Part shown: positions 11,884 through 45,633 of the stretch, one piece after another
Layout: each line of letters starts with the position of its first letter
How positions within the stretch are numbered: the stretch's first letter is position 1
Source: Escherichia phage SF
Sequence record: MH359124
Direction: 5' to 3' (one strand)
Length of the DNA stretch: 64,000 bases
Translations under genes and position numbers: made by a program
The notes under the pieces: model-generated
Database searches by the model: none
Told to the model about the DNA's origin: nothing
What the model saw: only the letters and a program-made list of their open reading frames with translations

Positions 11884-13701
11884 ATGATTAAAAATGAAAT
11901 TAAGGTATTGTCAGACGTAGAACATATTAAGAAACGTAGTGGCATGTATATTGGTTCTTCGGCCAAAGAAGCCCATGAGCGTTTTTTGTTTGGTAAATAT
12001 CAACAAGTTGAATATGTTCCTGGTCTGGTTAAATTAATCGATGAGATTATTGACAACTCGGTTGATGAAGCTATTCGTACATCATTTAAGTTTGCAAATA
12101 AAATTGATGTGCAAATTAAAAATAATCAAGTTTCGGTGGAAGATAACGGACGTGGTATTCCTCAAGGTTTAGTTACTGACCAAACAGGTGAACAAATTCC
12201 TGGGCCTGTAGCAGCCTGGACTATTCCAAAGGCTGGCGGTAACTTTGGTGATGACTCTGAACGTAAGACCGGTGGTATGAACGGCGTCGGGAGTAGTTTA
12301 ACTAATATCTTCTCTACGTTGTTTACAGGCATCACGTCAGATGGCGAAAATGAAATCACTGTTAACTGTTCAAACGGAATGGAAAACAAATCATGGTCTT
12401 CTAAGAAATCTAAAGGTAAAGGCACTAAAGTAATCTTCACTCCTGATTTCTCTTCATTTGAAGAGCATAATTTATCTCAAATTTATTTAGATATTACTTT
12501 AGACCGACTTCAAACATTGGCAGTCGTTTATCCTGATATCAAGTTCACATTTAATGGTAAAAAGGTTGATGGTAATTTTAAACGATTTGCTAAACAATTT
12601 GGCGAAGATAACATCATTCAAGAAAATGATAAAGTCTCTATAGCATTCACAACATCACCAGATGGCTTCCGTCATTTAACTTATGTGAATAACATCCATA
12701 CTAAAAATGGCGGTCATCACGTTGAATGTGTAATGGATGATATCTGCGAACATCTTTTGCCTGGTATTAAAAAGAAATATAAGGGTATTGAAGTCACTAA
12801 AGCTCGTGTTAAAGAATGTCTCACAATGTTGATGTTTATTAGAGACATGAGCAACATGCGTTTTGATTCTCAGACTAAAGAACGTTTAACGTCAACGTAT
12901 GGCGATATTCGTAATCATATCCAATTAGATACTAAGAAAATTGCTCAGGCACTTCTTAAAAACGAAGCCTTGATTATGCCTATTGTTGAAGCAGCATTAG
13001 CTCGTAAATTGGCAGCAGAAAAAGCTGCAGAAACTAAAGCAGCTAAAAAGGCAACTAAAGCTAAGGTTCATAAGCATATTAAAGCTAACCAATGTGGTAA
13101 AGATGCAGATACGACATTGTTTTTAACAGAAGGTGATTCTGCAATTGGTTATCTCATTGATGTTCGTGACCGTGAACTACACGGCGGATTTCCATTACGT
13201 GGTAAGGTGATGAATAGCTGGGGTATGTCATATGCTGATATGATGAAGAACAAAGAGCTCTTTGATATCTGTGCTATCACAGGTCTTATTCTTGGTGAAA
13301 AGGCAGAGAATACGAACTATCGTAATATTGCAATTATGACCGATGCCGATCATGACGGTCTTGGAAGTATTTATCCGGCTTTGCTTGCTTTCTTTAGTAA
13401 TTGGCCTGAATTGTTTGAACAAGGACGTATTCGCTTTGTTAAAACGCCTGTAATTATTGCACAAATTGGCAAAACTCAAAAATGGTTTTATACTGTAACT
13501 GAGTATGAAGAAGCTAAAGATACACTGCCTAAGCATAGTATTCGATACATCAAAGGATTGGGCTCCCTTGAAAAGTCAGAATATCGTGAAATGATTCAGA
13601 ACCCTGTGTACGACGTAGTTAAACTTCCTGAAAATTGGAAAGAACTCTTTGAAATGTTGTTGGGTGATGATTCAGAACTTCGTAAAGAATGGATGTCCTA
13701 A
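11884..13701 (+). CDS. 39: DNA topoisomerase II large subunit, undivided gp39+gp60
   Basis: 605 aa; N-terminal GHKL ATPase region matches recalled T4 gp39 and C-terminal part (IAIMTDADHDGLGSIYP...LRKEWMS) matches T4 gp60 in one continuous frame. Confidence 0.9.
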   Translation: MIKNEIKVLSDVEHIKKRSGMYIGSSAKEAHERFLFGKYQQVEYVPGLVKLIDEIIDNSVDEAIRTSFKFANKIDVQIKNNQVSVEDNGRGIPQGLVTDQTGEQIPGPVAAWTIPKAGGNFGDDSERKTGGMNGVGSSLTNIFSTLFTGITSDGENEITVNCSNGMENKSWSSKKSKGKGTKVIFTPDFSSFEEHNLSQIYLDITLDRLQTLAVVYPDIKFTFNGKKVDGNFKRFAKQFGEDNIIQENDKVSIAFTTSPDGFRHLTYVNNIHTKNGGHHVECVMDDICEHLLPGIKKKYKGIEVTKARVKECLTMLMFIRDMSNMRFDSQTKERLTSTYGDIRNHIQLDTKKIAQALLKNEALIMPIVEAALARKLAAEKAAETKAAKKATKAKVHKHIKANQCGKDADTTLFLTEGDSAIGYLIDVRDRELHGGFPLRGKVMNSWGMSYADMMKNKELFDICAITGLILGEKAENTNYRNIAIMTDADHDGLGSIYPALLAFFSNWPELFEQGRIRFVKTPVIIAQIGKTQKWFYTVTEYEEAKDTLPKHSIRYIKGLGSLEKSEYREMIQNPVYDVVKLPENWKELFEMLLGDDSELRKEWMS

Positions 13702-13725
13702 GCTCCTTCGGGAGCTTCATTTTAA
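13701..13725 (+). terminator. putative terminator hairpin after gene 39
   Basis: agctcc-ttcg-ggagct followed by a T-rich tract. Confidence 0.45.
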
Positions 13726-13743
13726 TTTTAATAAGGCTTAATT

Positions 13744-14844
13744 ATGAAAGTTATGTTTATCCCATCTCGTGCAGTCCCATTTAATCCTGACCGTGTACAA
13801 GGTGGTCTTGAAGCAGTACATTTAAATGTGCTGAAATATTTAGTTTCTATTGGTGCCGATATTGATTATATCGGTTTTGATAATGACACGTTTGGTGACT
13901 GGAAAGTTACACACCACCCTGTTGGACATCTGACTAAATTCAGTCTAGGTATGAGTTATACTATGGCTCGTAAGATTGTTGAACTAGCCGGCATCCATGA
14001 ATACGATTTTGTTGTTACTATGGAACCGACTAAACTAACCGTTCAGGCAATTAAAGACGCAGGTCTCTCTAAAGTTCATAAGAATTTTATGGCAACACCA
14101 TTTGAACCTGTATCTCGTGGCATTGTTCAAATTTGGGACCAGACTATTCAAATTCATAAGAATGGTGGTAAGAGTTATGCTCCTACTAAAGCCTTCCGTG
14201 AATTTGAACGCAAATATTGTTATATGACTTCAGGTCTGACTGACAAAATTGATTATGATTATTGGCGAGCAAATCCGTTGTTTGAAGCCGAAGATTATCC
14301 GGTTATTTGTTTGAATGAGAAACCTGAAGTTCTTCCTGCGACTGATCTGATTATTAGTGCACAACGTTATGACACTAAAATGCGTCGTACTGATGTTGCT
14401 CTTGAAGCGATTAAAGCACTAGGCGAAAATGGTGTAGGATACTGTCCAAGCAAATGGGCACCACCAGCTAAATATCCTGTTATTATTGATGCTCCACACA
14501 GTGAAATCATGGAACGTCTTAAAACAGCTAAAGCACTTATTAATACGTGTCCTGACACAGGTACGGTAGAGAATAGTTCTATTGAAGCCATCTCTAAAGG
14601 TGTCCCTGTAATCCAGTTAGTTTTTAAGGATTATCCTCATGCGACATTCGAATACGACCCAGATACTGTGCGTGTAGAAATTGATTCCTCTACTCCTAAG
14701 AAAGAAGTAGTTGCGCTTTACACAAAAGCTGTATTAGAATTCACTGACACATACGAAGCTCGAGTTAAACGTGCTGAAGCAGTATGGAAGAAGTATAACC
14801 GAGATGCAGTTGTTGCGATGTGGGATAAAATCTTCACAGCGTAA
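13744..14844 (+). CDS. putative GT-B fold glycosyltransferase (GT4-like); function inferred from motifs only
   Basis: 366 aa; N-terminal MKVMFI...GGLE and C-terminal TGTVENSSIEAISKGVPVI resemble GT4 donor-binding motifs; not similar to recalled T4 alpha-gt or beta-gt. Confidence 0.5.
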   Translation: MKVMFIPSRAVPFNPDRVQGGLEAVHLNVLKYLVSIGADIDYIGFDNDTFGDWKVTHHPVGHLTKFSLGMSYTMARKIVELAGIHEYDFVVTMEPTKLTVQAIKDAGLSKVHKNFMATPFEPVSRGIVQIWDQTIQIHKNGGKSYAPTKAFREFERKYCYMTSGLTDKIDYDYWRANPLFEAEDYPVICLNEKPEVLPATDLIISAQRYDTKMRRTDVALEAIKALGENGVGYCPSKWAPPAKYPVIIDAPHSEIMERLKTAKALINTCPDTGTVENSSIEAISKGVPVIQLVFKDYPHATFEYDPDTVRVEIDSSTPKKEVVALYTKAVLEFTDTYEARVKRAEAVWKKYNRDAVVAMWDKIFTA

Positions 14845-14860
14845 ATCCTGAATAGCCTGA

Positions 14861-14911
14861 GGCACTATTACACATAAGATGATAGATTATATGGTCTTTA
14901 GTAATAGTGCC
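14861..14911 (+). promoter_or_regulatory. inverted-repeat cassette (11-bp arms) with -10-like element upstream of ORF 14937
   Basis: GGCACTATTAC (14861-14871) and GTAATAGTGCC (14901-14911) flank TAGATTATAT. Confidence 0.35.
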
Positions 14912-14936
14912 CTAGGAATCTACTGAAGAGAATATT

Positions 14937-15137
14937 ATGAGAACATATAACGTGGACTTGGAACTTTTTGATAAAGCTGTGCTCCGGGAATTCCGGCTTA
15001 TCCAAAGGTTTTTTGATATCGAGTCAGCTGAAGCCTTTAAAGAACGCTTTAAGGAAATTCGATATAAAATACAAACCGATACAGCTACTAAAGAAGAACT
15101 TCTTGAAGTAGCAGAAATTTTTAAACGTAACTTGTGA
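14937..15137 (+). CDS. hypothetical protein
   Basis: 66 aa, predicted helical, charged. Confidence 0.45.
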   Translation: MRTYNVDLELFDKAVLREFRLIQRFFDIESAEAFKERFKEIRYKIQTDTATKEELLEVAEIFKRNL

Positions 15138-15149
15138 TGAGAGAAAAAT

Positions 15150-17363
15150 ATGATTATTGAAACGGCTAAAGAAACGATTATCGGTTCAGGCGGTAAGAGC
15201 ACAGCATTTACTATTCAAGGCAATAGCAAAGTTTATAAGATTTTGTCTAATGACCTTTATACAAACAAAGAATTGGCTTGTGTACGTGAATTAATCACAA
15301 ACTGTATTGATGGACAAATTCTTAATGGTTGCACTGATAAGTTTATTGTTCAGGCTCCAGGTCGTTTAGACCCACGTTTTGTAGTTCGAGACTTTGGTCC
15401 TGGTATGAGTGATTTCACCATTCGAGGTAATGACGAAGAGCCAGGAATCTATAACTCATATTTTGCTTCAACTAAAACATCGAGTAACGATTTCATTGGT
15501 GGATTCGGACTCGGTTCTAAAGCTCCACTAGCATATACTGATACGTTTAACATTACTTCTTATCATAATGGTGAAGTTCGTGGTTACGTAATCTACCAAG
15601 ATGACACGGGTCCACAAATTAAGCCAACATTTGTAGATAAGATGGGTCCTGATGACAGGACCGGCGTTGAAGTAGTTGTGCCTGTTAACCCAGAAGATTT
15701 TGAAAAGTTCGCATCCGAAATTGCTTATGTTATGCGTCCTCTCGGCGATATTGCAGAAGTTCGTGGTGTTAAAGATATCAAATACTTCCCAGAATTTGAT
15801 GATGTTTATTTAGCCAAGGAAGCTCCATGGGGTGAACGTGGTAATATCATGGCTGTTTATGGTGGTATTGTATATCCAATCGGAAGTGTTATTAAAGAAC
15901 AAACATGGATGATGACGCGATGCACTACAGCTTATATTAAATTCCCTATGGGTGAACTAGATGTAGCCCCGTCTCGTGAAGCATTGTCATTTGATAAACG
16001 TACAGTAGCAAATATCCATAAACGCGTTGCAGAAATCGATGCAAAATTATTTGCTGAAGATTCTAAGAAATGGATTGATTGTGAATATCCACGTCATGTA
16101 TTCCGTGAAATCGATTCTCTTGGTTACTCTGCTCGTAAATACATGGAAAAAGCTGGTTCTAATATTGAATCACTGAAATATTCTAAAGAACAGCTAACTT
16201 ATTCTGAGTTGTACAAACGTTTTAAAATGGGACCTGAATGGTGCAACCTTGGCGTTGTATATGATATCGTTTCAGACCCACGGCTTCGTCGTATTCGTGA
16301 AAGCGGAAGCTCGTCTTCAACTATTTCAATTAATAGCCTGCTAGGTATTAGTCGTAAGCATATTGATATTGTTATTGACGATGTGAAAGGCCGCGTACCA
16401 ATGATGCGTGCTCTGAACGATGCTTTGACTTCCACCGATGCATCAACACTCGTTGATAAGGTTCCTTCCGGATGGGGTAGTAGCGTATTATTCATTAACC
16501 CAGAAGACGAAGTTGCAATGAAACTTCTGGAACGATTAAAGGTTATTTTCGCTGGTGATAGCCTTAAATTTTATAAGACCTCCGAAATTCTTGCATTGGT
16601 TAAACCGTGGATTGAAGTTAAAGAACGTTCATCACAGCCTCGTCCTAAATCACCGAGTGCTCATCGGTTCTTTAAGAATGAAAACGATGTTTGGGTATCA
16701 GAAGATCTCTTTATTCCGGCCGGTAAAGCTGATGAGATTCAAGGTTATGTTGTAATTCGTAATCGTTCTAACGCTGAATGTCTTGACGCAGATAAAGGTT
16801 GGTTGAACTATGATTCTAGTTTCTTGACTCGTATTGCCGATTTGTCAGGTATTAAAGAGTTCACTGTAGTTCGCCCACAGATTGCTAAGAAAGTTCGTAA
16901 ACTTGGTGAAGTAGAATGCTTGTTCGAAAAATCAATTAATGACTATATTATGCTAATCGATAAAGTAGATTATGATGAGTATGTATCACCAAGTCGTAGA
17001 GCACAGCCTTATTTGAATCATATTACTCGTAATGAAGAGCTTAACTTCCTCAGTAAGTATTTTAGCTCTAAGAACAAAGAAATCAGTAAAGATTTTGCAA
17101 AACTTTCAACAGTAAATAATCGTTGGGGATGGAATCGATTCGCAGGTGCTGATAACAGAGACCTGAACAGGAAGTTAGAATTGTGTGCTAAAATTTTCGA
17201 TAAGCTTAAAGATAATGCTTACGATAATGATGATAAAATGGTTATTGAATTTGAAACCAATTATCATATTGTGTCAGAATACATGGGACGACGTGGTACT
17301 CTTTCTAAAGAACAGGTCGCTCAAATCGTTAAATTCATGAAGGCCGTGGAAGCGGCCAAATAA
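15150..17363 (+). CDS. rIIA: rIIA protein
   Basis: 737 aa; N-terminal region (VRELITN, GRLDPRFV.RDFGPGMSDF, NDFIGGFGLGSK, IYGGIVYPI) closely matches recalled T4 rIIA. Confidence 0.9.
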   Translation: MIIETAKETIIGSGGKSTAFTIQGNSKVYKILSNDLYTNKELACVRELITNCIDGQILNGCTDKFIVQAPGRLDPRFVVRDFGPGMSDFTIRGNDEEPGIYNSYFASTKTSSNDFIGGFGLGSKAPLAYTDTFNITSYHNGEVRGYVIYQDDTGPQIKPTFVDKMGPDDRTGVEVVVPVNPEDFEKFASEIAYVMRPLGDIAEVRGVKDIKYFPEFDDVYLAKEAPWGERGNIMAVYGGIVYPIGSVIKEQTWMMTRCTTAYIKFPMGELDVAPSREALSFDKRTVANIHKRVAEIDAKLFAEDSKKWIDCEYPRHVFREIDSLGYSARKYMEKAGSNIESLKYSKEQLTYSELYKRFKMGPEWCNLGVVYDIVSDPRLRRIRESGSSSSTISINSLLGISRKHIDIVIDDVKGRVPMMRALNDALTSTDASTLVDKVPSGWGSSVLFINPEDEVAMKLLERLKVIFAGDSLKFYKTSEILALVKPWIEVKERSSQPRPKSPSAHRFFKNENDVWVSEDLFIPAGKADEIQGYVVIRNRSNAECLDADKGWLNYDSSFLTRIADLSGIKEFTVVRPQIAKKVRKLGEVECLFEKSINDYIMLIDKVDYDEYVSPSRRAQPYLNHITRNEELNFLSKYFSSKNKEISKDFAKLSTVNNRWGWNRFAGADNRDLNRKLELCAKIFDKLKDNAYDNDDKMVIEFETNYHIVSEYMGRRGTLSKEQVAQIVKFMKAVEAAK

Positions 17364-17372
17364 GGAAACATT

Positions 17373-18308
17373 ATGTACAATATCAAATGCTTGTCCCAAG
17401 AAGAACAGTTAGAAGCTTACAACCTGGTCAAATCAGGCAAATGGACCCGTAAAGAAATTGCCGATTACTTCGACATTTCAACAGATACTCTTCGTAAGAT
17501 TGTTAAGAATTTTAAAGCTGAAGAGAAAGCAGCTAAATTTGAAGACGAAGAACAGGTCCCAGAAAATAATGAACCTATTATTACAGGTCATCGTCCAGAA
17601 ATCGTATGGAACGCGTCATCTAAATTTATTTCAATCATTGAAGGACGCGTAGCATACAATGCGACCCCATCAAGTCATGCAAATTTTGAAGAAATTAAAG
17701 CTAATTTGGTCGCAGGAAACCTTAGTAAAGCTGTCGAACTTATTAACATCAAGAAAGCTATTACTAAGTTTGTTGACGGTAATGTTACTATTGAAGGTGG
17801 TAGTTTATTTTATCAAGGTATAGAGATTCGTTCAGGACTGGTTAATCGTATTATTGATTCCATGGAAAAAGGCGAAGACTTTAAATTCTATCTGCCGTTC
17901 CTTGAAAACCTGTTAGAAAACCCAAGCGAAAAAGCTGTACAACGTTTATTCGACTTCTTGGTTGCAAACGATATTGAAATCACTGAAGATGGGCATTTCT
18001 ATGCGTGGAAAGTAGTTCGTAAAGACTATTTAGATTGCTATAGCGGTACATTTGATAACTCGCCTGGTAAAGTTGTTTCAATGCCTCGTACTCGTGTTAA
18101 CGATGATGATACTCAAACCTGCTCCCGTGGTCTACATGTTTGTGCTAAATCATATATTCGTTACTTTGGTTCTAGCTCAGATAAAGTTGTTAAGGTTAAA
18201 GTTCATCCACGTGATGTTGTATCTATCCCAGTTGACTATGGCGATGCTAAGATGCGTACTTGTCGTTATGAAGTAATTTCAGACGTTACTGAATTATTTG
18301 CAGAATAA
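17373..18308 (+). CDS. rIIB: rIIB protein
   Basis: 311 aa; MYNIKCL..., C-terminal third nearly identical to recalled T4 rIIB (FDFLVANDIEITEDG, VVSMPRTRVNDDDTQTCSRGLHVC). Confidence 0.9.
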   Translation: MYNIKCLSQEEQLEAYNLVKSGKWTRKEIADYFDISTDTLRKIVKNFKAEEKAAKFEDEEQVPENNEPIITGHRPEIVWNASSKFISIIEGRVAYNATPSSHANFEEIKANLVAGNLSKAVELINIKKAITKFVDGNVTIEGGSLFYQGIEIRSGLVNRIIDSMEKGEDFKFYLPFLENLLENPSEKAVQRLFDFLVANDIEITEDGHFYAWKVVRKDYLDCYSGTFDNSPGKVVSMPRTRVNDDDTQTCSRGLHVCAKSYIRYFGSSSDKVVKVKVHPRDVVSIPVDYGDAKMRTCRYEVISDVTELFAE

Positions 18309-18313
18309 TAATT

Positions 18314-18337
18314 GGGGACTTCGGTCCCCTTTTTTCT
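18314..18337 (+). terminator. rho-independent terminator after rIIB
   Basis: ggggac-ttcg-gtcccc followed by T6. Confidence 0.6.
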
Positions 18338-18349
18338 TTAGGGGTAATT

Positions 18350-18637
18350 ATGATTCATCCATTTGACGTATCAGAATCCAAAATTGCTAATCTTCGTGGT
18401 CATCATAAGTGTAAATCAGTTTATTGCGCTAAATTGGTAAAACATCCTGGCGATGCACACTACGGCTGGTTAGAATGCGACGAAGTTGTTATTGAAATTC
18501 CGCCTGTAGATGCAGAATATCTTGAAGAAGGTGATCGCATTTATTTTGGCGAACTACACATCAGAGGTATCTATGGTAAAGACGAACTTGGGGCTGTTGA
18601 GACTGAAGAATCTTCCGACATTTATCCTGTCGAATGA
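18350..18637 (+). CDS. hypothetical protein (rIIB-ndd interval, denB region)
   Basis: 95 aa, His/Cys-containing; ATG right after terminator. Confidence 0.45.
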   Translation: MIHPFDVSESKIANLRGHHKCKSVYCAKLVKHPGDAHYGWLECDEVVIEIPPVDAEYLEEGDRIYFGELHIRGIYGKDELGAVETEESSDIYPVE

Positions 18638-18653
18638 GTTTTTGACTAGTGAA

Positions 18654-19130
18654 ATGAAGGTGAAGATTGCTGACACTGCTCGGTATTCCCTGAGCCAAAA
18701 TCCTGGCCAAAACAAAGAAGATGTAGTTCGACGTTGTAAGGTTGCGGTCTTTGCAGAGTATGTAGTAGCAAATTGGCTAGACGGATATGTTAATAAAGGT
18801 ATTGAAGACGTAGAAGACCCATACACGTATGCATGGGACGTGTTAGCCCATCCCAAGTATTGCGGAATTCGTGTAGAAGTCAAGACACACCAGATAGATT
18901 CTAAATGGATTTCGGTTACCACAGGATACAGTGGTGATTATCCGGGTGGTAATGGAATCAATATAGGGCCCTTCTTGAACCATCGAGTCGCAGACTGCAT
19001 TATTATATTAGATGTCAAAGAAACCTCACCTGACGTCTTCTCTTATTCTATAAAGTTCGTGGGAGACCATGAAGACCTAAAGAAAATCGTCCGCAAGAGC
19101 AACTACAACGGGTGGTATCTTCATCTTTAA
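18654..19130 (+). CDS. hypothetical protein (possible denB-region product)
   Basis: Track ORF 18510 trimmed to the first ATG after the upstream stop; 158 aa; weak SD. Confidence 0.4.
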   Translation: MKVKIADTARYSLSQNPGQNKEDVVRRCKVAVFAEYVVANWLDGYVNKGIEDVEDPYTYAWDVLAHPKYCGIRVEVKTHQIDSKWISVTTGYSGDYPGGNGINIGPFLNHRVADCIIILDVKETSPDVFSYSIKFVGDHEDLKKIVRKSNYNGWYLHL

Positions 19131-19142
19131 TTTCATAAAAGT

Positions 19143-19180
19143 GTTTACAACTAAGTAGGACTATGATACAGTAGTCCTAT
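19143..19180 (+). promoter_or_regulatory. early promoter with stem-loop (TAGGACTA/TAGTCCTA)
   Basis: GTTTAC at 19143; 8-bp inverted repeat around TGATACAG. Confidence 0.5.
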
Positions 19181-19198
19181 CTAAAAGAGGATAGCATC

Positions 19199-19462
19199 AT
19201 GAAATTTAAATTTTTCTACGCAAAACATAAAGTAACAGGCGAATTTGTTTCAATGTACAACACCGCAGATGATGAAGGGATGATTTATACCCATTTAGGC
19301 CTATCTCATTGGGACTCAGACGTGCCTTATATGTCATCTGAAGCCGAAATAACTCGTCTGGTTAATGGACATATGAACGACCATTTTAGTGTTATTCTTT
19401 CTAAAGACCTTAAAGAGGTTATCAACAAAGGATATATGGAACTCGCGGAAGTTGAGATATGA
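19199..19462 (+). CDS. hypothetical protein
   Basis: 87 aa; AAGAGGA SD. Confidence 0.5.
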   Translation: MKFKFFYAKHKVTGEFVSMYNTADDEGMIYTHLGLSHWDSDVPYMSSEAEITRLVNGHMNDHFSVILSKDLKEVINKGYMELAEVEI

Positions 19463-19651
19463 GCTCTAAAATGTGGATAGGAATATGGTTTCTTAGTATC
19501 CCTATGATTTGTATAATATTTTCAATTGCATTGAGGTACTTATGAAAAATGCACTTATTGTACTAAGAACAATTTGCGATACAGGTTTTTACATCGCATG
19601 TTCGTTCACTGGAACATGGTTGGCTTTAACATATTTTAATGTAATTTAATT

Positions 19652-19690
19652 GTTTACAACACAGTAGGATTATGGTATAGTAGTCCTATC
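19652..19690 (+). promoter_or_regulatory. early promoter with imperfect stem-loop
   Basis: GTTTAC at 19652; TAGGATTATGGTATAGTAGTCCTATCAAAACA cassette. Confidence 0.45.
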
Positions 19691-19709
19691 AAAACACGAG
19701 GAAAACAAA

Positions 19710-19910
19710 ATGGCTAAGCTTTTTAAAGATGTTGAAATTGGTGAAAAATTTGTCCTGAATAATGGTCAGCAGCTTATTCGTGTAGCTTCTATAGCCGGAC
19801 AAACTCATAACTGCATAGCCCCAACGTGTTGGACCCGATTCTTTATTGAGGATGACACCGAATGTTTAACTGTTGAAGAGCTTTTTGAACGTTCTGATAT
19901 AACCGAATAA
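19710..19910 (+). CDS. hypothetical protein
   Basis: 66 aa, Cys-containing. Confidence 0.5.
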   Translation: MAKLFKDVEIGEKFVLNNGQQLIRVASIAGQTHNCIAPTCWTRFFIEDDTECLTVEELFERSDITE

Positions 19911-19912
19911 AA

Positions 19913-19948
19913 TTGTACAAACTCTTGAGAGCAGAGTATAATGCTCTC
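19913..19948 (+). promoter_or_regulatory. early promoter (TTGTAC -35, TATAAT -10) within GAGAGCA/TGCTCTC inverted repeat
   Basis: Homologous to the cassette at 48659. Confidence 0.5.
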
Positions 19949-19986
19949 ATGGATTACAAAAACATTAATCAATTGAGGAAATTAGC

Positions 19987-20433
19987 ATGTCCAAATATTT
20001 AACTCGTAAAGACCTTCTGGCAGTTGGCGGTGAAGTTGTTGCAGTAGTTCGTAATGGCGAATACGGTTCTGAAGTTTCTAAAGAGTTTCGTTCTCGTGAA
20101 GGTTTTTACTTCTTTGTTAAAGGTTCATCTGATTGGCGTCAAGTAGCAGCACGATTCTTTGTAGGACGTCAACGTTCTAAACAAGGGTTGGATGCAATTC
20201 TTTCTCACATTCGTCAAGGCCGTTCGCAACTAGCCCGTACTATGGGCACTAACAATATTGAATATGATGTAATCTTTGTTGCAGCTAAGAACATGAAACC
20301 ACTGACCACTGGTTATGGTAAAGGACAATTGGCTCTGGCATTCACTCGCAATCATACATCAGAATATCAAACACTCACTGAAATGAACCGTCTTCTGGCA
20401 GATAATTTCAAATTCATTCTGCAGAGTTATTAA
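19987..20433 (+). CDS. ndd: nucleoid disruption protein Ndd
   Basis: 148 aa; [59 protein letters not shown] match recalled T4 Ndd. Confidence 0.85.
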
Positions 20434-20486
20434 TTTATATAGGCCTATTAAGTTAGGCCTTTAATTTATTTTTGAGGTAATTAAAA

Positions 20487-20636
20487 TGGTAACATGGATT
20501 ATTGCATTGTTGTGTTGGTCGTTTTTATTCATTAACACTTTAGTTACAGGCGAAACAACAGTATTTCAACAGGCTGTATCACAAGGTACCTTAGCGGTCT
20601 TAGCTCTTTTTAACGTATTAAAAGGCGAGCAATGAT
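20487..20636 (+). CDS. small hydrophobic peptide (49 aa)
   Basis: Below the track cutoff; hand-translated MVTWIIALLCWSFLFI...; position upstream of gene 52 as for T4 stp/ac. Confidence 0.3.
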
Positions 20637-20771
20637 TAAGAAAATCTTAGCAGGAGCCTTCGGGCTCTTGTTGTTGCTTACGGTCCTGTACTACGGTGTG
20701 ATGTTTGGGCTAATCCAAGTAGTGCTTTTCATTTCAGATGTTATAATGGCTATTCGTTCATTAATATGGTG
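20634..20771 (+). CDS. small hydrophobic peptide (45 aa), possibly Ac-like
   Basis: Hand-translated MIKKILAGAFGLLLLLTVLYYGVMFG...; immediately upstream of gene 52. Confidence 0.3.
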
Positions 20772-20776
20772 AAAAT

Positions 20777-22102
20777 ATGCAATTGAATTCTCGTAATCTA
20801 AAAAGTATTATTGATAACGAAGCCTTAGCATATGCGATGTACACCGTTGAAAACCGTGCAATCCCAAACATGATTGATGGATTTAAGCCGGTTCAACGTT
20901 TTGTGGTTCATCGTGCGTTAGATTTGGCTCGTGGTAATAAAGAAAAATTTCATAAACTTGCGTCAATTGCAGGCGGTGTTGCAGATTTAGGTTATCACCA
21001 TGGTGAATCTTCTGCACAAGATGCAGGTGCATTGATGGCTAACACATGGAACAACAACTATCCACTGTTAGATGGCCAAGGCAACTTTGGTTCTCGAACA
21101 GTCCAAAAAGCTGCAGCATCTCGTTATATTTTTGCTCGTGTAAGTAAAAATTTCTATAACGTATATAAAGATACTGAATATGCTCCAGCTCATGAAGATA
21201 AAGAACACATTCCACCAAAATTCTATCTTCCTATTATTCCAACAGTTCTTTTGAATGGCGTCTCTGGTATTGCAACCGGTTACGCAACAAATATTCTGCC
21301 TCATAGTTTTAAATCAGTCAAAAAGGCTGTATTACAAGCTCTTCAAGGTAAAAATGTCACTAAGCCAAAAGTTGAATTCCCGGAATTCCGTGGTGAAGTA
21401 CATGAAGTTGATGGGCGTTATGAGATTCACGGAACATATAAGTTCACATCCCGAACTCAAATGCAGATAACTGAAATCCCATATAAATTCGACCGTGAAA
21501 CGTATGTGAGTAAGGTTCTTGACCCATTGGAAGACAAAGGTCTAATCTCATGGGAAGATGATTGTGGTGAACACGGCTTTGGGTTTAAGGTGAAGTTCCG
21601 TAAAGAGTACTCGCTTCCTGATGATGAAGAGCTACGTCATGAAAAAATCATGAAAGATTTTAGTCTCATCGAACGTCGTTCGCAAAACATCACAGTGATT
21701 AATGAAAAGGGTAAATTAGCGGTCTATGATAACGTAGTGGACTTAATCAAAGATTTTGTTGAAGTCCGTAAGACTTATGTTCAGAAACGTATTGACAACA
21801 AAATCCTTGAATCTGAAAAAGCATTTAAACTGGCTTTTGCTAAGGCACACTTCATCAAAAAAGTTATTACAGGTGAAATTGTGATTCAGGGCAAGACTCG
21901 TAAAGCTTTGACTGAAGAGCTAGCACAAATCGAAATGTATAAAGAACATGTCGATAAACTGGTAGGCCTTAACATCTTCCATATCACTTCCGACGAAGCA
22001 CGTAAACTAGCAGAAGAAGCTAAGGCTAAGAAAGAAGAAAATGAGTATTGGAAGTCTACTGATGTTGTGACAGAGTACACTAAAGACTTGGAGGCACTTT
22101 GA
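20777..22102 (+). CDS. 52: DNA topoisomerase II medium subunit gp52
   Basis: 441 aa; GyrA/ParC-like N-terminus (AYAMYTVENRAIPNMIDGFKPVQR), same size as T4 gp52. Confidence 0.92.
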   Translation: MQLNSRNLKSIIDNEALAYAMYTVENRAIPNMIDGFKPVQRFVVHRALDLARGNKEKFHKLASIAGGVADLGYHHGESSAQDAGALMANTWNNNYPLLDGQGNFGSRTVQKAAASRYIFARVSKNFYNVYKDTEYAPAHEDKEHIPPKFYLPIIPTVLLNGVSGIATGYATNILPHSFKSVKKAVLQALQGKNVTKPKVEFPEFRGEVHEVDGRYEIHGTYKFTSRTQMQITEIPYKFDRETYVSKVLDPLEDKGLISWEDDCGEHGFGFKVKFRKEYSLPDDEELRHEKIMKDFSLIERRSQNITVINEKGKLAVYDNVVDLIKDFVEVRKTYVQKRIDNKILESEKAFKLAFAKAHFIKKVITGEIVIQGKTRKALTEELAQIEMYKEHVDKLVGLNIFHITSDEARKLAEEAKAKKEENEYWKSTDVVTEYTKDLEAL

Positions 22103-22178
22103 GTGCCCTAGCCTTAGGATTTCTCGGTGCAATAGCTGCACTAGTGATTTGGCTGTATTGGTTGGACAAACATGATTA

Positions 22179-22199
22179 GGGAGCTTCGGCTCCCTTTTG
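22179..22199 (+). terminator. rho-independent terminator after gene 52
   Basis: gggagc-ttcg-gctccc followed by T4. Confidence 0.55.
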
Positions 22200-22221
22200 T
22201 GCATTTTTTTCTCACAAAACA

Positions 22222-22250
22222 GTTTACTTTTGCTTCAAACATGATATTAT
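22222..22250 (+). promoter_or_regulatory. early promoter, copy A of a duplicated cassette of about 75 bp
   Basis: GTTTAC, 17 bp, TATTAT; cassette AGTTTACTTTTGCTTCAAAC.TGATATTATAGACCTATCAAAACAAA...TTGGAGAAATAAAATGTCTAAA. Confidence 0.5.
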
Positions 22251-22289
22251 AGACCTATCAAAACAAAACAACCAAATTGGAGAAATAAA

Positions 22290-22505
22290 ATGTCTAAAAT
22301 GAAATTAACCCAAAACACAACTACTCGTTTCGGTAAAGTTAAACCTGGTATGAATGCTCCCCGTAAAGCACTTGTTGAAGAATTAAATTTCTTAGAAGTT
22401 GAAATCAATTCTTTAGTGGTTCGCGGTTCAAATGGACATCATTTAGAAAAGCTTCGTTCTAAAAAGGCAAAACTTATTGGCCTTATTAAAGAAATGAGTT
22501 TGTAA
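22290..22505 (+). CDS. hypothetical protein
   Basis: 71 aa, basic; begins MSK like the following motA. Confidence 0.5.
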   Translation: MSKMKLTQNTTTRFGKVKPGMNAPRKALVEELNFLEVEINSLVVRGSNGHHLEKLRSKKAKLIGLIKEMSL

Positions 22506-22543
22506 ATTTTACCAGGGCTTTTGGAAAAAGAGCCCAAAATAAA

Positions 22544-22572
22544 GTTTACTTTTGCTTCAAACGTGATATTAT
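22544..22572 (+). promoter_or_regulatory. early promoter, copy B of the duplicated cassette
   Basis: About 90 percent identical to the cassette at 22222; precedes motA. Confidence 0.5.
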
Positions 22573-22609
22573 AGACCTATCAAAACAAATACTAATTTGG
22601 AGAAATAAA

Positions 22610-23242
22610 ATGTCTAAAGTTACTTACATCATCAAAGCTTCTGAAAACGCTCTGAATGAAAAAACTGCTGCAATAATGGTTTATGTCATTAAGAACAACT
22701 TCACCACGGCTGCCAATGTCCGTGAAGCTCTGGAAGCGGAATACAATGCATCGGTTGTTAACTCTAACATTGGTGTATTGATTAAGAAAGGTTTAGTCGA
22801 AAAATCCGGTGATGGACTTGTAGCAACAGGCGAAGCAATGGATATTATCCAAAAAGCTGCAGACCTCTTTGCCCAAGAAAATGCTCCAGAACTTCTTCAG
22901 AAACGTAACACTAGAAAAGCACGTGGAGTTACTCCTGAAATGCACGAATTAGCGAACTTTGTTTTTGAAAATATTAAAGATAAAGTTGAAGTTAAAGAAA
23001 TTGGTGAAAACCGTAGTAACTTGGAAGTTCGATTTGCAAAACGAGTTCTAGGTATTCGTCAGATCGAAATTCGTCGAAATGGTTCTCTTAGAATCTTTGC
23101 ATACAACATGTCAGAAACTGAATCAAAGCTGTTTACTTCTCTTGAAAATGATGTTAAGATTAAGATCGGTGGTAAATATACATACATTGACTTCCCTAAT
23201 GTGTCCAAAGAAATCATTACCCTTGTAACTAACGTACTGTGA
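22610..23242 (+). CDS. motA: middle-mode transcription activator MotA
   Basis: 210 aa; MSKVTYIIKAS, NSNIGVLIKKGLVEKSGDGL, QENAPELL match recalled T4 MotA. Confidence 0.85.
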   Translation: MSKVTYIIKASENALNEKTAAIMVYVIKNNFTTAANVREALEAEYNASVVNSNIGVLIKKGLVEKSGDGLVATGEAMDIIQKAADLFAQENAPELLQKRNTRKARGVTPEMHELANFVFENIKDKVEVKEIGENRSNLEVRFAKRVLGIRQIEIRRNGSLRIFAYNMSETESKLFTSLENDVKIKIGGKYTYIDFPNVSKEIITLVTNVL

Positions 23243-23252
23243 GGAATACATA

Positions 23253-23582
23253 ATGAATAAGCTGAATATTATTAACGAACTTCGTAAATGTGCAGAACCT
23301 ACTCAGGAAGGATGGGATATTTGGTACCACGGGGCTTATTTAGGGACAATTGTAAAGATTAAAGCAGGCCAATATATGATTATTCGTGAAAATAATGACG
23401 CACCATTTGGCCTTCGTAAAAACTACATGGCAGCGATCAGTTCATTTGTTGATGCAGCTTACGAAATCTATAAAGAAGATTATAAAGAATATCAGCAGTC
23501 ACAACCGGTTATTCGTTCGATTGGTGTAAATAAACAAGCACAAAAATCTATTTGGCAACGTATTAAGGAATGGTTTAAATGA
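23253..23582 (+). CDS. hypothetical protein
   Basis: 109 aa. Confidence 0.5.
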
Positions 23583-24040
23583 AATCATTTAAAGAACGTT
23601 TAGAGCTATTAGATTTGGCCTTGTCTCGTGAGACTCCTGAAAGTCTAGCAGAAAAATTCCAGTCCTACGGTTATAATTATTCTGCTGATGATATAATGAA
23701 TGAAGTTCCTGAAATCTGTTGGCAAACGTGCTATTGGAATAATGACCAAAAAGTTCAACGTGTTATAGTATGTGCAGCTAATAGGTTTAAATTGAAGAGT
23801 GGTGGAACTCTGGTTATTCCTGGAGTTCGTCATTACTCTAAAGATATGGCTGAAGTACTTGATATAGTTGGTCCTCAATTAGTCTCGCAACAAGTTTGTG
23901 GCGACGACCAAGGCTTTATCGACCAATACTCTAACTACTGGACTCGTGAAGAAGCAATGATTATTGCAACGTATGCTGGACAGGTACGTATTGAACGTGG
24001 CGGAAGTGAGAAAGAACTTTATTCAGAGGACCTGTATTAA
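23579..24040 (+). CDS. hypothetical protein
   Basis: 153 aa; ATGA overlap with upstream gene. Confidence 0.5.
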
Positions 24041-24321
24041 TGAATATTAAACAACTCCAGAAAGATGCTATTGAATCACGTATCCAAGATATCAAACGTC
24101 TTAATCATATGATGGAAGAAAACTATGGTATGTATGCTAATCAGCCCGGTTGGGACGCTTTAGACCATCCTTATTTGGTTAATTTATGTAAAGGTGATAC
24201 GTTAGCAATTATTCGTGATGGGTTAAAACCTTTCTTGCGTGACATGTATATTAAAATGAACGAAGAAATTATTAGCTCGTTGCAATATCAATTAAGGAAA
24301 TTAGATGATGAGAATAATTGA
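24040..24321 (+). CDS. hypothetical protein (Arn-sized, motA-asiA interval)
   Basis: 93 aa; position where T4 carries the anti-restriction gene arn; sequence not recognised. Confidence 0.45.
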   Translation: MNIKQLQKDAIESRIQDIKRLNHMMEENYGMYANQPGWDALDHPYLVNLCKGDTLAIIRDGLKPFLRDMYIKMNEEIISSLQYQLRKLDDENN

Positions 24322-24532
24322 TTCTAAAATAGATTATTTTAATTCTGTTAATGATAAGAATAAAGCTTTAATTCGCCACTTTATTACTGAGATGGGATAT
24401 ACCGACTCTAAAGATTTGAAAGAGCACATTATCGAATGTTCTGTGGCTAAAAAGTTTTCTTTTACCGATAAATGTTTAAATGAGGTTATAAATCATTATG
24501 AACAATCTTGTAGCAAAACACGATTTCAATAA
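24305..24532 (+). CDS. hypothetical protein
   Basis: 75 aa. Confidence 0.4.
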   Translation: MMRIIDSKIDYFNSVNDKNKALIRHFITEMGYTDSKDLKEHIIECSVAKKFSFTDKCLNEVINHYEQSCSKTRFQ

Positions 24533-26036: not shown

Positions 26037-26066
26037 AGACCCTCCTTTTAAGGATATTTATTCAAA

Positions 26067-38158: not shown

Positions 38159-38187
38159 GCTTTATTTCTTGTGTGTTAAAATTACTT

Positions 38188-38195
38188 TATAAATA
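38188..38195 (+). promoter_or_regulatory. late promoter TATAAATA upstream of gene 32
   Basis: Exact TATAAATA about 80 bp upstream of the gp32 ATG. Confidence 0.5.
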
Positions 38196-38203
38196 AATCA
38201 TAC

Positions 38204-38275
38204 CAGCTACGAGGTATAAGTGTCGTAGCAACCAACTGTAAAATTTAATTAATAATCTAAATAAAGGCAAATAAA
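38204..38275 (+). promoter_or_regulatory. gene 32 translational operator: leader hairpin/pseudoknot plus unstructured A/U-rich tract
   Basis: Stem GCTACGA...TCGTAGC (38206-38229) followed by AAAATTTAATTAATAATCTAAATAAAGGCAAATAAA before the ATG, as in the autoregulated T4 gene 32 leader. Confidence 0.55.
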
Positions 38276-39744: not shown

Positions 39745-40927
<1,183 letters not shown>

Positions 40928-40942
40928 TTATATAGGTGTTAA

Positions 40943-41803
40943 ATGAAACAATATCAAGATTTGATTAAAGATATCTTAGAAAATGGCTATGAAACAGACG
41001 ACCGTACAGGTACCGGCACTATTGCTCTATTCGGAACTAAATTGCGATGGGACCTTACTAAAGGATTTCCTGCAGTAACAACCAAGAAGCTTGCATGGAA
41101 AGCTTGTATTGCCGAGCTATTATGGTTCATGTCTGGTTCTACCAATGTTAATGATTTGCGTATTCGTACTCATGGTAGTCTTATTCAAGGTAAAACTATT
41201 TGGGACGACAACTATGAAAATCAGGCAAAAGACCTTGGATATCATAGCGGCGAACTTGGTCCTATTTATGGTAAGCAATGGCGTGATTTTGGTGGTGTAG
41301 ACCAATTGGTCAAAACTATTGACCGTATTAAAGCTCTTCCTAATGATCGTCGTCAAATAGTTTCTGCATGGAACCCGGCCGAAATTGACCAAATGGCTCT
41401 TCCTCCTTGTCATATGTTCTATCAATTTAACGTGCGTAATGGGCATCTTGATTTACAATGGTATCAACGCAGTGTAGATGTTTTCTTGGGTCTGCCATTC
41501 AACATTGCCTCGTACGCTGCCTTGACACATATTGTAGCGAAGATGTGTAACCTTATCCCAGGTGATTTAGTGTTCTCAGGCGGCAACACGCATATCTACA
41601 GCAATCATGTAGAACAATGCAAAGAAGTTCTTCGTCGTGAACCTAAAGAGTTGTGTTCTCTTGAAATTAATTGGCCTAGTAATTTTGAGAATTGGCCTAC
41701 AAAAATCCAAATGGACTGGGTTACTGGAACGATGACACATTCTGATTTCGTTCTTAAAAATTACGAATCTCATCCAACTATCAAAGCTAAAATGGCGGTA
41801 TAA
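40943..41803 (+). CDS. td: thymidylate synthase, uninterrupted
   Basis: 286 aa continuous ORF; TDDRTGTGT, catalytic PPCH, FNIASYA motifs. Confidence 0.95.
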   Translation: MKQYQDLIKDILENGYETDDRTGTGTIALFGTKLRWDLTKGFPAVTTKKLAWKACIAELLWFMSGSTNVNDLRIRTHGSLIQGKTIWDDNYENQAKDLGYHSGELGPIYGKQWRDFGGVDQLVKTIDRIKALPNDRRQIVSAWNPAEIDQMALPPCHMFYQFNVRNGHLDLQWYQRSVDVFLGLPFNIASYAALTHIVAKMCNLIPGDLVFSGGNTHIYSNHVEQCKEVLRREPKELCSLEINWPSNFENWPTKIQMDWVTGTMTHSDFVLKNYESHPTIKAKMAV

Positions 41804-42145: not shown

Positions 42146-44401
42146 ATGCAAGTAACTAAGAGCAGTGGGGTATCCCAAAATTTTGATGCACAGAAAATTA
42201 TTCAAGTTTTAACTTGGCAATGTGAAGGAACACAAATTGACCCATATGAATTGTATGAAGAAATTAAGACACATCTTGTCGATGGGATGAGCACCAAAGA
42301 TATTCAGAAGATTTGTATTAAAGTTGCAGCTAACTTGATTTCTGTCGAAGAACCTGATTATCAGTATGTCGCTGCCAAAGGGCTAATGTTTGCACTTCGT
42401 AAAGATGTATATGGGCAGTTTGAACCGCCTGCTTTTATAGACCATATTTCTTATTGTGTTAATGAAGGCAAATACGACCCTGAGCTGTTGTCTCAATATT
42501 CGGCAGAAGAAATCATTTATCTCGATTCACAGATTAAACATGAACGAGACTTTGACCTGACTTATGCTGGTGCTATGCAGCTTAAAGAAAAATATCTAGT
42601 TAAAGATAAAACAACTGGGAAGATTTATGAAACTCCACAGTTTGCTATCATGGCTATTGGCATGGCCTTACACCAAGACGAAACTCATGACCGTTTGAAA
42701 CATATTATTCGTTTTTATGATGCCGTTTCTACTCATCAAGTTTCATTGCCAACCCCAATTATGGCAGGTGCTCGTACTCCAACTCGCCAGTTCTCTAGTT
42801 GTGTAGTTATTGAAGCCGGTGATTCGTTAAAATCTATTAACAAAACTTCAGCATCAATTATTGAATATATTTCTAAACGAGCTGGTATCGGTATCAACGT
42901 TGGTATGCTTCGTGCAGAAGGTTCTAAGATCGGTACGGGTGAAGTTCGACATACAGGTGTTATTCCATTCTGGAAACATTTCCAAACTGCAGTAAAATCT
43001 TGTTCTCAAGGCGGTATTCGTGGTGGTGCTGCTACAGCGTATTATCCGATGTGGCACTTAGAAGTAGAGAACCTATTAGTTCTGAAAAATAACAAAGGTG
43101 TGGATGAAAACCGTATTCGACATATGGACTACGGAATTCAGATTAATGACCTTATGATGGAACGCCTTGGTAAAAATGATTATATTACTTTATTTAGCCC
43201 TCACGAAATGTCAGGCGAACTATACTACTCGTTCTTTGAAGATCAAGATAAATTCCGTGAGCTTTATGAGAAAGCTGAAAAAGACCCAACAATCAGAAAG
43301 AAAAGAATCAAAGCACTAGAACTCTTTGAATTGTTCATGACTGAACGTTCTGGTACTGCTCGAATTTATCCACAGTTTGTTGATAACACGAATAACTACA
43401 CTCCATTTATTCGTGAAAAAGCTCCAATTCGTCAGAGTAACTTATGTTGTGAAATCGCTATTCCGACTAATGATGTGAATGGTCCTGATGCTGAAATTGG
43501 TTTATGCACGTTATCTGCTTTTGTATTAGATAAATTTGATTGGCAAGACCAAGATAAAATTAATGAACTTGCTGAAGTACAAGTACGTGCACTTGATAAC
43601 CTGTTAGACTATCAAGATTATCCGGTTCCAGAAGCTTTAAAAGCTAAAAAGCGTCGAAACCTCGGTGTTGGTGTGACGAACTATGCCGCATGGTTAGCTT
43701 CTAACTTTGCTTCATATGAAGACGCTAATGATTTGACTCATGAATTGTTTGAGAGATTGCAATATGGCCTTATCAAAGCTTCAATCAAACTCGCCAAAGA
43801 AAAAGGATGTTGCGAGTATTATTCAGACACTAAATGGTCTAGAGGCGAATTACCTATCGACTGGTACAATAAAAAGATTGACCAAATCGCAGCCCCGAAC
43901 TACGTCTGTGACTGGGAAGAACTTCGAGCTGAACTCAAAGAACACGGAATTCGTAACAGTACACTCAGTGCTCTCATGCCATGCGAATCAAGCAGCCAGG
44001 TCTCAAATAGCACAAATGGTATTGAACCACCTCGTGGTCCAGTAAGTATTAAAGAATCTAAAGAAGGTAATTTCCGTCAAGTAGTTCCTAATATTGAACA
44101 CAACATGGGTCTTTATGACTATGCGTGGAAACTTGCTAAGAAAGGTAATAAACCTTATTTGACCCAAGTTGCTATCATGTTGAAATGGGTGTGCCAATCT
44201 GCTTCTGCTAATACTTACTATGACCCTGCAGTATTTGAGAAAGGTAAAGTGCCAATGTCAGTAATGCTTGACGATCTGCTTTACTTCTGGTACTTTGGCG
44301 GAAAAAATCTCTACTATCATAACACTCGCGACGGGTCAGGTACAGATGACTATGAATTAGAAACACCTAAAGCTGAAGATTGTTCTGCTTGTAAGCTTTA
44401 A
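42146..44401 (+). CDS. nrdA: aerobic ribonucleotide reductase large subunit NrdA
   Basis: 751 aa; class I RNR motifs (SNLCCEI active-site region, C-terminal CxxC tail). Confidence 0.95.
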   Translation: MQVTKSSGVSQNFDAQKIIQVLTWQCEGTQIDPYELYEEIKTHLVDGMSTKDIQKICIKVAANLISVEEPDYQYVAAKGLMFALRKDVYGQFEPPAFIDHISYCVNEGKYDPELLSQYSAEEIIYLDSQIKHERDFDLTYAGAMQLKEKYLVKDKTTGKIYETPQFAIMAIGMALHQDETHDRLKHIIRFYDAVSTHQVSLPTPIMAGARTPTRQFSSCVVIEAGDSLKSINKTSASIIEYISKRAGIGINVGMLRAEGSKIGTGEVRHTGVIPFWKHFQTAVKSCSQGGIRGGAATAYYPMWHLEVENLLVLKNNKGVDENRIRHMDYGIQINDLMMERLGKNDYITLFSPHEMSGELYYSFFEDQDKFRELYEKAEKDPTIRKKRIKALELFELFMTERSGTARIYPQFVDNTNNYTPFIREKAPIRQSNLCCEIAIPTNDVNGPDAEIGLCTLSAFVLDKFDWQDQDKINELAEVQVRALDNLLDYQDYPVPEALKAKKRRNLGVGVTNYAAWLASNFASYEDANDLTHELFERLQYGLIKASIKLAKEKGCCEYYSDTKWSRGELPIDWYNKKIDQIAAPNYVCDWEELRAELKEHGIRNSTLSALMPCESSSQVSNSTNGIEPPRGPVSIKESKEGNFRQVVPNIEHNMGLYDYAWKLAKKGNKPYLTQVAIMLKWVCQSASANTYYDPAVFEKGKVPMSVMLDDLLYFWYFGGKNLYYHNTRDGSGTDDYELETPKAEDCSACKL

Positions 44402-44454
44402 GACTTTTTATTATAATTTACTCATGGATGAGTTAAACTAAGTGAGAAAATATA

Positions 44455-45633
44455 ATGAGTACAGTTTTTAACACACAACAAGTCGATGTTTTGAATGAAC
44501 CGATGTTCTTTGGTTCTGGTCTTGGTCTCGCACGTTACGATATTCAGCGTCATAAAGTTTTTGAAGAACTTATAGAAAAATCCTTGTCATTTTTCTGGCG
44601 CCCTGAAGAGGTAAACTTGATGTTGGACTCTGCGCAGTTCAATAAGCTTCCTCAGTTCCAACAGGACATCTTTACAAACAATCTTAAGTATCAATCATTA
44701 TTGGATTCTATCCAAGGCAGGGCCCCATCTGCGGTACTTATGGCACTGATTTCTGACCCTTCATTAGATACATGGGTTGCAACATGGACATTCAGTGAAA
44801 CTATTCACTCTCGTTCGTATACTCATATTATGCGAAATCTTTATACAGACCCATCTAAGGTATTTGATGAAATTGTATTAGACGAAGCAATCATGAAACG
44901 AGCTGAATCAATAGGTAAATATTACGATGATGTTCTAGTCAAGACTCGTCATTGGGAAAACCAGAAAGAATTCACGGAACTAGCCAAAGCGTCAATTGGT
45001 GCAGACCTTCAATTAAAACGTGCTATTAAGCAAGAAGCCGCTGCTAAGCGTGATTTAATGAAGTCTCTTTATCTCTGTTTGCATGTTATCAACGCCTTAG
45101 AAGCTATTCGTTTTTACGTATCATTTGCATGTACTTTCAACTTCCATAAAAATATGGAAATTATGGAAGGTAATGCAAAGATTATGAAGTTCATTGCTCG
45201 TGACGAACAACTCCACCTCAAGGGTACTCAGTACATTATCCGTCAACTTCAATCTGGTACTGATGGTGATGAGTGGGTTCAAATTGCTAAAGAATGTGAA
45301 CAAGAAGCAGTTGACATTTTTATGGAAGTAAATAGTCAAGAGAAGGAATGGGCTGCACACCTCTTTAAAGATGGTACATGTCCAGGTATCAATACGCAGA
45401 GTATGTGTGCTTTTGTTGATTACTTGACTGTGTCTCGTATGAAACAGTGTGGTTTGCCATGCCCAATCACTGATGCTCCGACCAAGCATCCGTATCCTTG
45501 GATTCGTGAATATCTGAACTCTGATTTAGTTCAAGCAGCTCCTCAGGAAGTTGAAATCAGTTCTTATCTTGTCGCACAAATTGATAATGATGTAGACCAA
45601 AATGTAATCAATTCATACAAAAAATATTTCTAA
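44455..45633 (+). CDS. nrdB: ribonucleotide reductase small subunit NrdB, uninterrupted
   Basis: 392 aa continuous ORF; di-iron/tyrosyl radical protein features. Confidence 0.93.
   Translation: MSTVFNTQQVDVLNEPMFFGSGLGLARYDIQRHKVFEELIEKSLSFFWRPEEVNLMLDSAQFNKLPQFQQDIFTNNLKYQSLLDSIQGRAPSAVLMALISDPSLDTWVATWTFSETIHSRSYTHIMRNLYTDPSKVFDEIVLDEAIMKRAESIGKYYDDVLVKTRHWENQKEFTELAKASIGADLQLKRAIKQEAAAKRDLMKSLYLCLHVINALEAIRFYVSFACTFNFHKNMEIMEGNAKIMKFIARDEQLHLKGTQYIIRQLQSGTDGDEWVQIAKECEQEAVDIFMEVNSQEKEWAAHLFKDGTCPGINTQSMCAFVDYLTVSRMKQCGLPCPITDAPTKHPYPWIREYLNSDLVQAAPQEVEISSYLVAQIDNDVDQNVINSYKKYF

Follow-up and report, generated by a model that had tools for sequence, protein, structure and literature searches.

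Undivided gene 39 and intron-less td and nrdB in the gene 61-to-48 segment of Escherichia phage SF, an arrangement shared by most relatives of phage T4

The stretch of Escherichia phage SF DNA analysed here (64,000 nucleotides of record MH359124, below called the window) carries the gene for the large subunit of topoisomerase II, gene 39, as one undivided frame, and has td and nrdB genes without introns, at positions where phage T4 has a split topoisomerase gene, two group I introns and homing endonuclease genes. We consider it very probable that the window is an ordinary Mosigvirus segment with an arrangement shared by most T4 relatives, and that its differences from T4 are acquisitions on the T4 side, not the result of streamlining here. 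The window is collinear with the matching T4 region, the sites at which T4 holds its elements are empty, and homologues of the T4 homing endonucleases are not detectable. Judged by published work and by its occurrence across phage records, the unsplit, intron-less state is probably ancestral rather than restored.

The window is the gene 61-to-48 segment of a Mosigvirus, i.e., an RB69-like relative of the T-even phages. Positions 11000–31000 (20 kb) match 921 phage records, of which those of Mosigvirus (RB69-like) coliphages match best, including LF82-4 (94.2% nucleotide identity at 99% coverage), PHB12 (97.1%) and AlbertHofmann (95.6%), with coverage in the range 92–99%. Synteny with AlbertHofmann holds gene by gene across the window. 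The gene order, which lies on the opposite strand in T4, is 61, 56, soc, dda, 39, rIIA/B, 52, tail-fibre genes 34–38, 32, frd, td, nrdA/B, denA, rnlA, pseT, cd, 30, alt, 54 and 48, and the order from 61 to 48 is the same in PHB12, LF82-4 and AlbertHofmann. As in the window, these Mosigvirus relatives have an arabinosyltransferase-like open reading frame (ORF) adjoining gene 39, td and nrdB genes without introns, and nrdA next to nrdB; they also show small presence/absence differences and a nucleotide identity of 94–97%, not 100%.

Gene 39 (11884–13701, + strand) forms one frame from ATG to stop and encodes 605 residues with the GyrB-type Pfam domains HATPase_c, DNA_gyraseB and TOPRIM_C. In a blastp comparison with T4, the product aligns first with gp39 residues 1–473 at 79% identity and then, unbroken, with gp60 residues 27–159 at 86% identity, which agrees with the claim of a first-pass annotation of this DNA that a single 605-residue gene covers what T4 divides between genes 39 and 60. 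For the remaining segments of the T4 proteins, gp39 residues 474–516 and gp60 residues 1–26, blastp finds no counterpart in the 605-residue protein; these C-terminal and N-terminal extensions are encoded by the inserted element in T4 (bioRxiv 10.1101/2022.08.31.505936). The protein junction that corresponds to the site of the 50-nt bypass gap in T4 is uninterrupted (...MTDADHDG-LGSIYP...), and the nucleotides run across the gap position as ...GAT CAT GAC GGT CTT GGA AGT..., with no 50-nt gap, which in T4 separates identical GGA codons for take-off and landing. At the T4 take-off position the glycine codon is GGT in the window, not GGA. A mobA gene or pseudogene was not found in the window, where the best tblastn E value is 0.61 and the best E value of a hidden Markov model (HMM) for the Mob group is 0.034; given this and the continuous nucleotides over the gap position, the bypass element and the mobA insertion are both absent, as had been proposed. 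Thus, the coding flanks of the T4 39/mobA/60 bypass cassette are homologous to the gene 39 of the window, whereas the parts of the cassette itself are all missing (the gp39 C-terminal extension, mobA, 60.1, the gp60 N-terminal extension and the 50-nt gap). A sequencing frameshift in the 605-residue frame is not an issue, because the protein is 99.8% identical to the product of the single-piece gene in PHB12, and 110 records are at least 99% identical to it.

The td gene (40943–41803, + strand, 286 residues) and the nrdB gene (44455–45633, + strand, 392 residues) were likewise described at first pass as uninterrupted, and alignment with the T4 exons shows the exon sequences to be contiguous in both. 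In td, window positions 40940–41491 correspond to T4 145115–144564 and positions 41492–41803 to T4 143546–143235, and the 1,017 nt that lie between the td exons of T4 are absent at 41491/41492. In nrdB, positions 44454–45128 correspond to T4 139720–139058 and positions 45131–46200 to T4 138457–137393, and about 600 nt of T4 are absent at the exon-junction equivalent (approximately 45130/45131). Compared with T4, the exon sequences of both genes are homologous, but the group I introns and their endonuclease ORFs (I-TevI and I-TevIII) are missing from the window. Both proteins have Pfam matches over their full length, and the best tblastn E value for I-TevI in the window is 2.9. The absence of introns was judged by direct exon alignment because an Rfam scan at gathering thresholds, which gave no group I intron match in the window, equally missed the known td and nrdB introns of T4; the scan carries no evidential weight, and a negative Rfam result for group I introns that carry endonucleases is not to be relied on. 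Between the two genes lies nrdA (42146–44401, + strand, 751 residues; assigned by Pfam and T4 alignment), followed by a 53-bp spacer with neither mobE nor nrdB.1. A corresponding situation is found in the Tequatrovirus RB14, in which td and nrdB are intron-less, nrdA adjoins nrdB, and mobE is absent.

In the T4 region that matches the window there are six endonuclease genes or relics, namely segF, mobA, segG, I-TevI, mobE and I-TevIII. At three of these sites the window has a spacer, of 46 bp for segF, 117 bp for segG and 53 bp for mobE, and at the other three (mobA, I-TevI and I-TevIII) an ORF runs on without a break. The empty segF site separates the dCTPase gene 56 (1579–2100, + strand; T4 homology and map) from soc (2147–2383), and the 117-bp spacer is that between genes 59 and 32 (38159–38275), where the T4 map has segG. 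When 13 T4 endonucleases (segA–C, F and G; mobA–E; I-TevI–III), Dam and Dmd were used as tblastn queries against the window, none gave a match below E = 0.3 (Seg queries, E at least 0.48; Mob queries, E at least 0.61), and the DenA control gave E = 8e-76. HMMs of the N-terminal catalytic regions of a Mob-HNH group, with a protein from phage phiC120 included, and of a Seg/I-Tev GIY-YIG group were run with filters off against every six-frame stretch of at least 25 residues in the window, with best E values of 0.034 (Mob) and 0.14 (Seg/I-Tev). The window holds 19 ORFs without a T4 homologue, and 17 of these have no nuclease family in Pfam and/or PHROGs; ORF 5274–5414 (− strand) is unscanned, and ORF 19509–19649 was covered by the Pfam batch only. 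The identifiable ones are an RB69-type putative arabinosyltransferase, a T2-type gp38 adhesin and an enzyme resembling DAHP/KDO8P synthases. The sole Pfam GIY-YIG match belongs to endonuclease II, DenA (45660–46070, + strand, 136 residues; E = 2.5e-6), which is 78% identical to T4 DenA. Two further first-pass statements, that the 64 kb hold no relative of the seg, mob or I-Tev type and that DenA is the only GIY-YIG protein, are therefore upheld by tblastn, the custom HMMs, Pfam and PHROGs. An HTH_23 match on the 311-residue ORF at 17373–18308 was considered as a possible endonuclease DNA-binding domain, and rejected, the ORF being rIIB (65% identical to T4 rIIB). The whole genome of AlbertHofmann, which has dmd in the T4 position, is also without a T4-type seg, mob, I-Tev or dam homologue.

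The arrangement in the window is common. In a survey of 50,697 phage records, 1,498 of which have a gp39 homologue, cassettes and introns were counted by megablast, with a query coverage of at least 80% as the threshold. The T4-type mobA/gene-60 cassette was found in 43 records (41 covering at least 80%), the td intron in 260 (197 at this coverage) and the nrdB intron in 191 (118 at this coverage). Among T4 relatives, the unsplit, intron-less state is the clear majority, and T4 is the exception. Phage T2, which belongs to a different genus, and most T4 relatives have a single uninterrupted large-subunit gene like that of the window. According to bioRxiv 10.1101/2022.08.31.505936, a MobA element split the ancestral topoisomerase gene of T4, and genomic sequences with a split gene numbered only 28. 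In this literature, the undivided gene counts as the ancestral form, from which the T4 arrangement, with 39 and 60 separate and a bypass between them, arose by insertion of a MobA cassette (bioRxiv 10.1101/2022.08.31.505936; PMC2988022); the former source cites Bonocora et al. 2011 for the MobA-insertion view. RB69 was reported in 2010 to be without homing endonuclease genes ("RB69 ... None", Table 5 of PMC2993671), and T4 has been called "an oddity" in published work. It is thus already known, from work published 2010–2022, that RB69-type phages are free of homing endonucleases and introns and that the division of 39/60 in T4 is a derived state.

Under the reading that we prefer, the large topoisomerase subunit is made from one uninterrupted gene in the window, and td and nrdB need no splicing. 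The differences between T4 and the window arose when T4, together with a minority of its near relatives, gained selfish homing-endonuclease cassettes and group I introns, and the sites of T4 segF, mobA, segG, mobE and the two intron-borne endonucleases are without these elements across the RB69-type lineage. The gene content differs in both directions, since ORFs found only in T4 amount to 9.9 kb in the syntenic region, about half of it endonuclease- or intron-related, and ORFs found only in the window to approximately 6.6 kb. The term "streamlined", which the first-pass annotation applied to the arrangement, is therefore an overstatement. Its suggestion of a pre-invasion state can be retained in part. 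The polarity for gene 39 agrees with published work, and "uninvaded at T4's sites" is a fair description, but the state is neither special nor relict, as it is that of the majority, and the genus itself has been invaded (phages phiC120 and phiE142, see below).

Several points weigh against this reading. Megablast misses diverged cassettes and introns, and the counts obtained with it are lower bounds. The window covers 64 kb of the genome, and endonuclease genes might be present elsewhere in the phage; an endonuclease of novel fold would escape every search used. Two ORFs of the window, of 115 and 99 residues, are labelled "putative homing endonuclease" in records of relatives from the BASEL collection. 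For the introns, sequence alone does not separate a site that was never invaded from one that was cleanly vacated. The last point bears on a history in which introns or free-standing endonuclease genes were once present and were cleanly lost by recombination with empty alleles, so that the present state would be a restored one. Clean junctions are the expected trace of such precise loss, and the homing cycle of invasion, decay and loss is an accepted model that is discussed in PMC2988022; T4 itself holds decaying copies in the form of the mobA pseudogene and the defective I-TevIII. We nevertheless regard a purge of this kind as very unlikely here, since no endonuclease or intron remnant is found at any of the six sites, and since the same empty state is seen in AlbertHofmann, is reported for RB69, and occurs in most other T4-like genera, such that many independent clean losses would have to be assumed; a small number of gains among T4-like Tequatroviruses would be the more parsimonious history.

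The genus Mosigvirus is not untouched by homing endonucleases. In phiC120 and phiE142, a gene for a 265-residue Mob-like HNH/NUMOD3 endonuclease is inserted into the final codons of gene 39, and a Mob-like HNH gene is present at the end of gene 39 in about 26 other records (at least 95% identity). The insert in phiC120 is a 798-bp ORF located between TGGATG repeats, with a cluster of substitutions in the last approximately 40 nt of gene 39, and the C-terminus of the endonuclease, CWMS followed by the stop codon, re-forms the end of gene 39, EWMS followed by the stop codon. Genus and locus are the same as for the window, and the flanks are 96.6–96.7% identical; alignment to phiC120 shows that the window has the empty allele at this site, with a 42-bp spacer (13702–13743) after gene 39. 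That Mosigviruses can be invaded in this way counts against a further explanation, which we consider unlikely, although less so than a purge, and according to which the emptiness is actively maintained because homing is blocked by arabinosyl-hydroxymethylcytosine (arabinosyl-hmC) DNA, by exclusion of T4-type co-infecting phages, or by flanks that have diverged too far. Each of these has some basis, in that a putative arabinosyltransferase gene is present in the window, that RB69 excludes T4 completely in mixed infection with no recombination between the two (PMC2993671), and that the DNA around the target sites shares no more than 66–80% of its nucleotides with T4. Within td, however, the I-TevI cleavage motif CAACG is kept at the correct distance from the intron insertion site (−27 to −23), with synonymous changes around it. 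From the general tolerance of I-TevI, the td site may still be cleavable by this enzyme.

The two ORFs with endonuclease labels are both absent from T4. The 115-residue ORF (40580–40927, + strand) lies between frd and td, and the 99-residue ORF (48717–49016, + strand) upstream of pseT. Neither has a Pfam match, both fall in PHROG families of unknown function, and neither shows a nuclease signature or a known nuclease fold; the fold of the 115-residue ORF is without a solved relative, and the 99-residue ORF is the top, non-significant match of the Seg HMM (E = 0.14). The BASEL authors annotated by comparative genomics and mention "putative homing endonucleases" as being present or absent (PMC8594841), and the labels on both ORFs probably rest on such presence/absence patterns and not on domain evidence. 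At the level of sequence, we keep the description of the window as having no recognisable endonuclease.

The 115-residue ORF is found in the same slot between frd and td in Tequatrovirus at 92–94% identity, and in T4-like phages of Klebsiella, Enterobacter and Serratia at 30–42%. In T4, frd and td overlap exactly at the position of the ORF, which is bordered by an AAATGAA repeat, and the RB14 record carries the remark "flanked by 9 bp repeat". On these grounds, the ORF looks like an old gene that was lost by T4 across the AAATGAA repeat, and not like a recent invader. An identity profile against RB14, with 82–95% identity in the ORF, 58–93% (mostly about 80%) in td and 50–68% in frd, was considered with respect to a co-conversion peak at the ORF; identity falls sharply at the frd boundary, no peak stands clearly apart from td, and the profile is not decisive. 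Among the records listed for the 99-residue ORF, where genus was not checked record by record, those at 94–100% identity belong to Escherichia phages that either match the 20-kb Mosigvirus-type region as well or have a 99.7% identical gp39, with the exception of the unannotated PQ561402 (100% identical to the ORF). The listed T4-type records (RB32 and BASEL Tequatroviruses) have the ORF at approximately 55–69% identity.

It would still be conceivable that one or both ORFs encode homing endonucleases of an undescribed family, in which case the window would not be free of endonucleases. Hef-type endonucleases, for comparison, lack the standard nuclease motifs. The label, the absence of both ORFs from T4, and the position of the 115-residue ORF at the frd/td overlap with its bordering repeats would fit such an assignment, and "hef-like" is a category of its own in Table 5 of PMC2993671. 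The lack of Pfam matches, the PHROG families of unknown function, the wide occupancy of the frd–td slot, as expected of an old gene that T4 has lost, and the distribution of the 99-residue ORF between Mosigvirus-type-matching Escherichia phages and T4-type records all speak against this, and we find it highly improbable. There is only a very slim chance that the 115-residue ORF, and possibly the 99-residue ORF, represent selfish or nuclease elements of a class not yet described, at T4-type gene junctions; if so, a concealed type of mobile gene would reside in Mosigvirus genomes that pass as endonuclease-free.

As a discovery, the arrangement in the window has little weight. For homing experiments, the region has a use as a naturally occurring collection of empty sites, since its MobA target region is contiguous, its td site retains the I-TevI motif, and it has an empty allele for the phiC120-type Mob gene. 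It also illustrates that T4 is not a good guide to the usual state of its family.

Directly behind the stop codon of gene 39, the 42-bp spacer contains a GCTCCTTCGGGAGC hairpin with a UUCG tetraloop (13704–13717), which is followed by a T-rich run. Stable hairpins of this type often occur between the genes of T4, and a similar CCTTCGGG hairpin sequence is contained in the bypass gap of T4. The spacer is followed by a 366-residue ORF (13744–14844, + strand), a putative hmC-arabinosyltransferase of the RB69p003c type (PMC8056088), assigned from the AlbertHofmann annotation and a PHROG 8302 match (E = 1e-222), and without a T4 homologue. This gene of approximately 1.1 kb fills the slot in which T4 has gene 60, mobA and 60.1. 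Further downstream, a 330-residue ORF (51198–52190, + strand) with no T4 counterpart belongs to the DAHP/KDO8P-synthase family (Pfam DAHP_synth_1, E = 2e-74), and is labelled "putative aldolase" in AlbertHofmann. Arabinose-5-phosphate is a substrate of KDO8P synthases, and a putative tie of this ORF to the metabolism of an arabinosyl-hmC precursor is conceivable.

At the left end of the window, gene 61 (273–1295, + strand) encodes a primase of 340 residues, which is 74% identical to T4 gp61 and annotated as DNA primase in AlbertHofmann. The interval between genes 61 and 56 (1296–1578) measures 283 bp, close to the 280 bp or so given at first pass, and lacks dam, which in T4 occupies 780 bp of the interval in addition to spacers; T4 Dam gives no tblastn match below E = 0.8 in the window. 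The accompanying statement that T4 has several small genes in that neighbourhood, including dmd and dam, is wrong in detail, as the T4 61–56 interval contains only dam, and T4 dmd is located between 41 and 61, which is beyond the left edge of the window. In AlbertHofmann, Dmd is found at the T4 position (tblastn E = 5e-18). The absence of dam appears to be a lineage trait, because tblastn finds no Dam homologue anywhere in the AlbertHofmann genome either. On the other side of gene 56, where the window has the 46-bp spacer, AlbertHofmann has two additional small ORFs (57 and 74 residues) between 56 and soc, at the position of T4 segF, and the 56–soc interval is thus another presence/absence polymorphism inside the genus. 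Within the 61–56 interval, a hydrophobic ORF of 65 residues (1292–1489, − strand) overlaps the stop codon of gene 61 by 4 nt. At 55.6% identity (E = 3e-19), it matches a T4 ORF at approximately 17738–17938 (+ strand) that is unannotated in AF158101.6. The window ORF is listed as hypothetical in AlbertHofmann, and may be a conserved small membrane protein that was overlooked in the annotation of T4.

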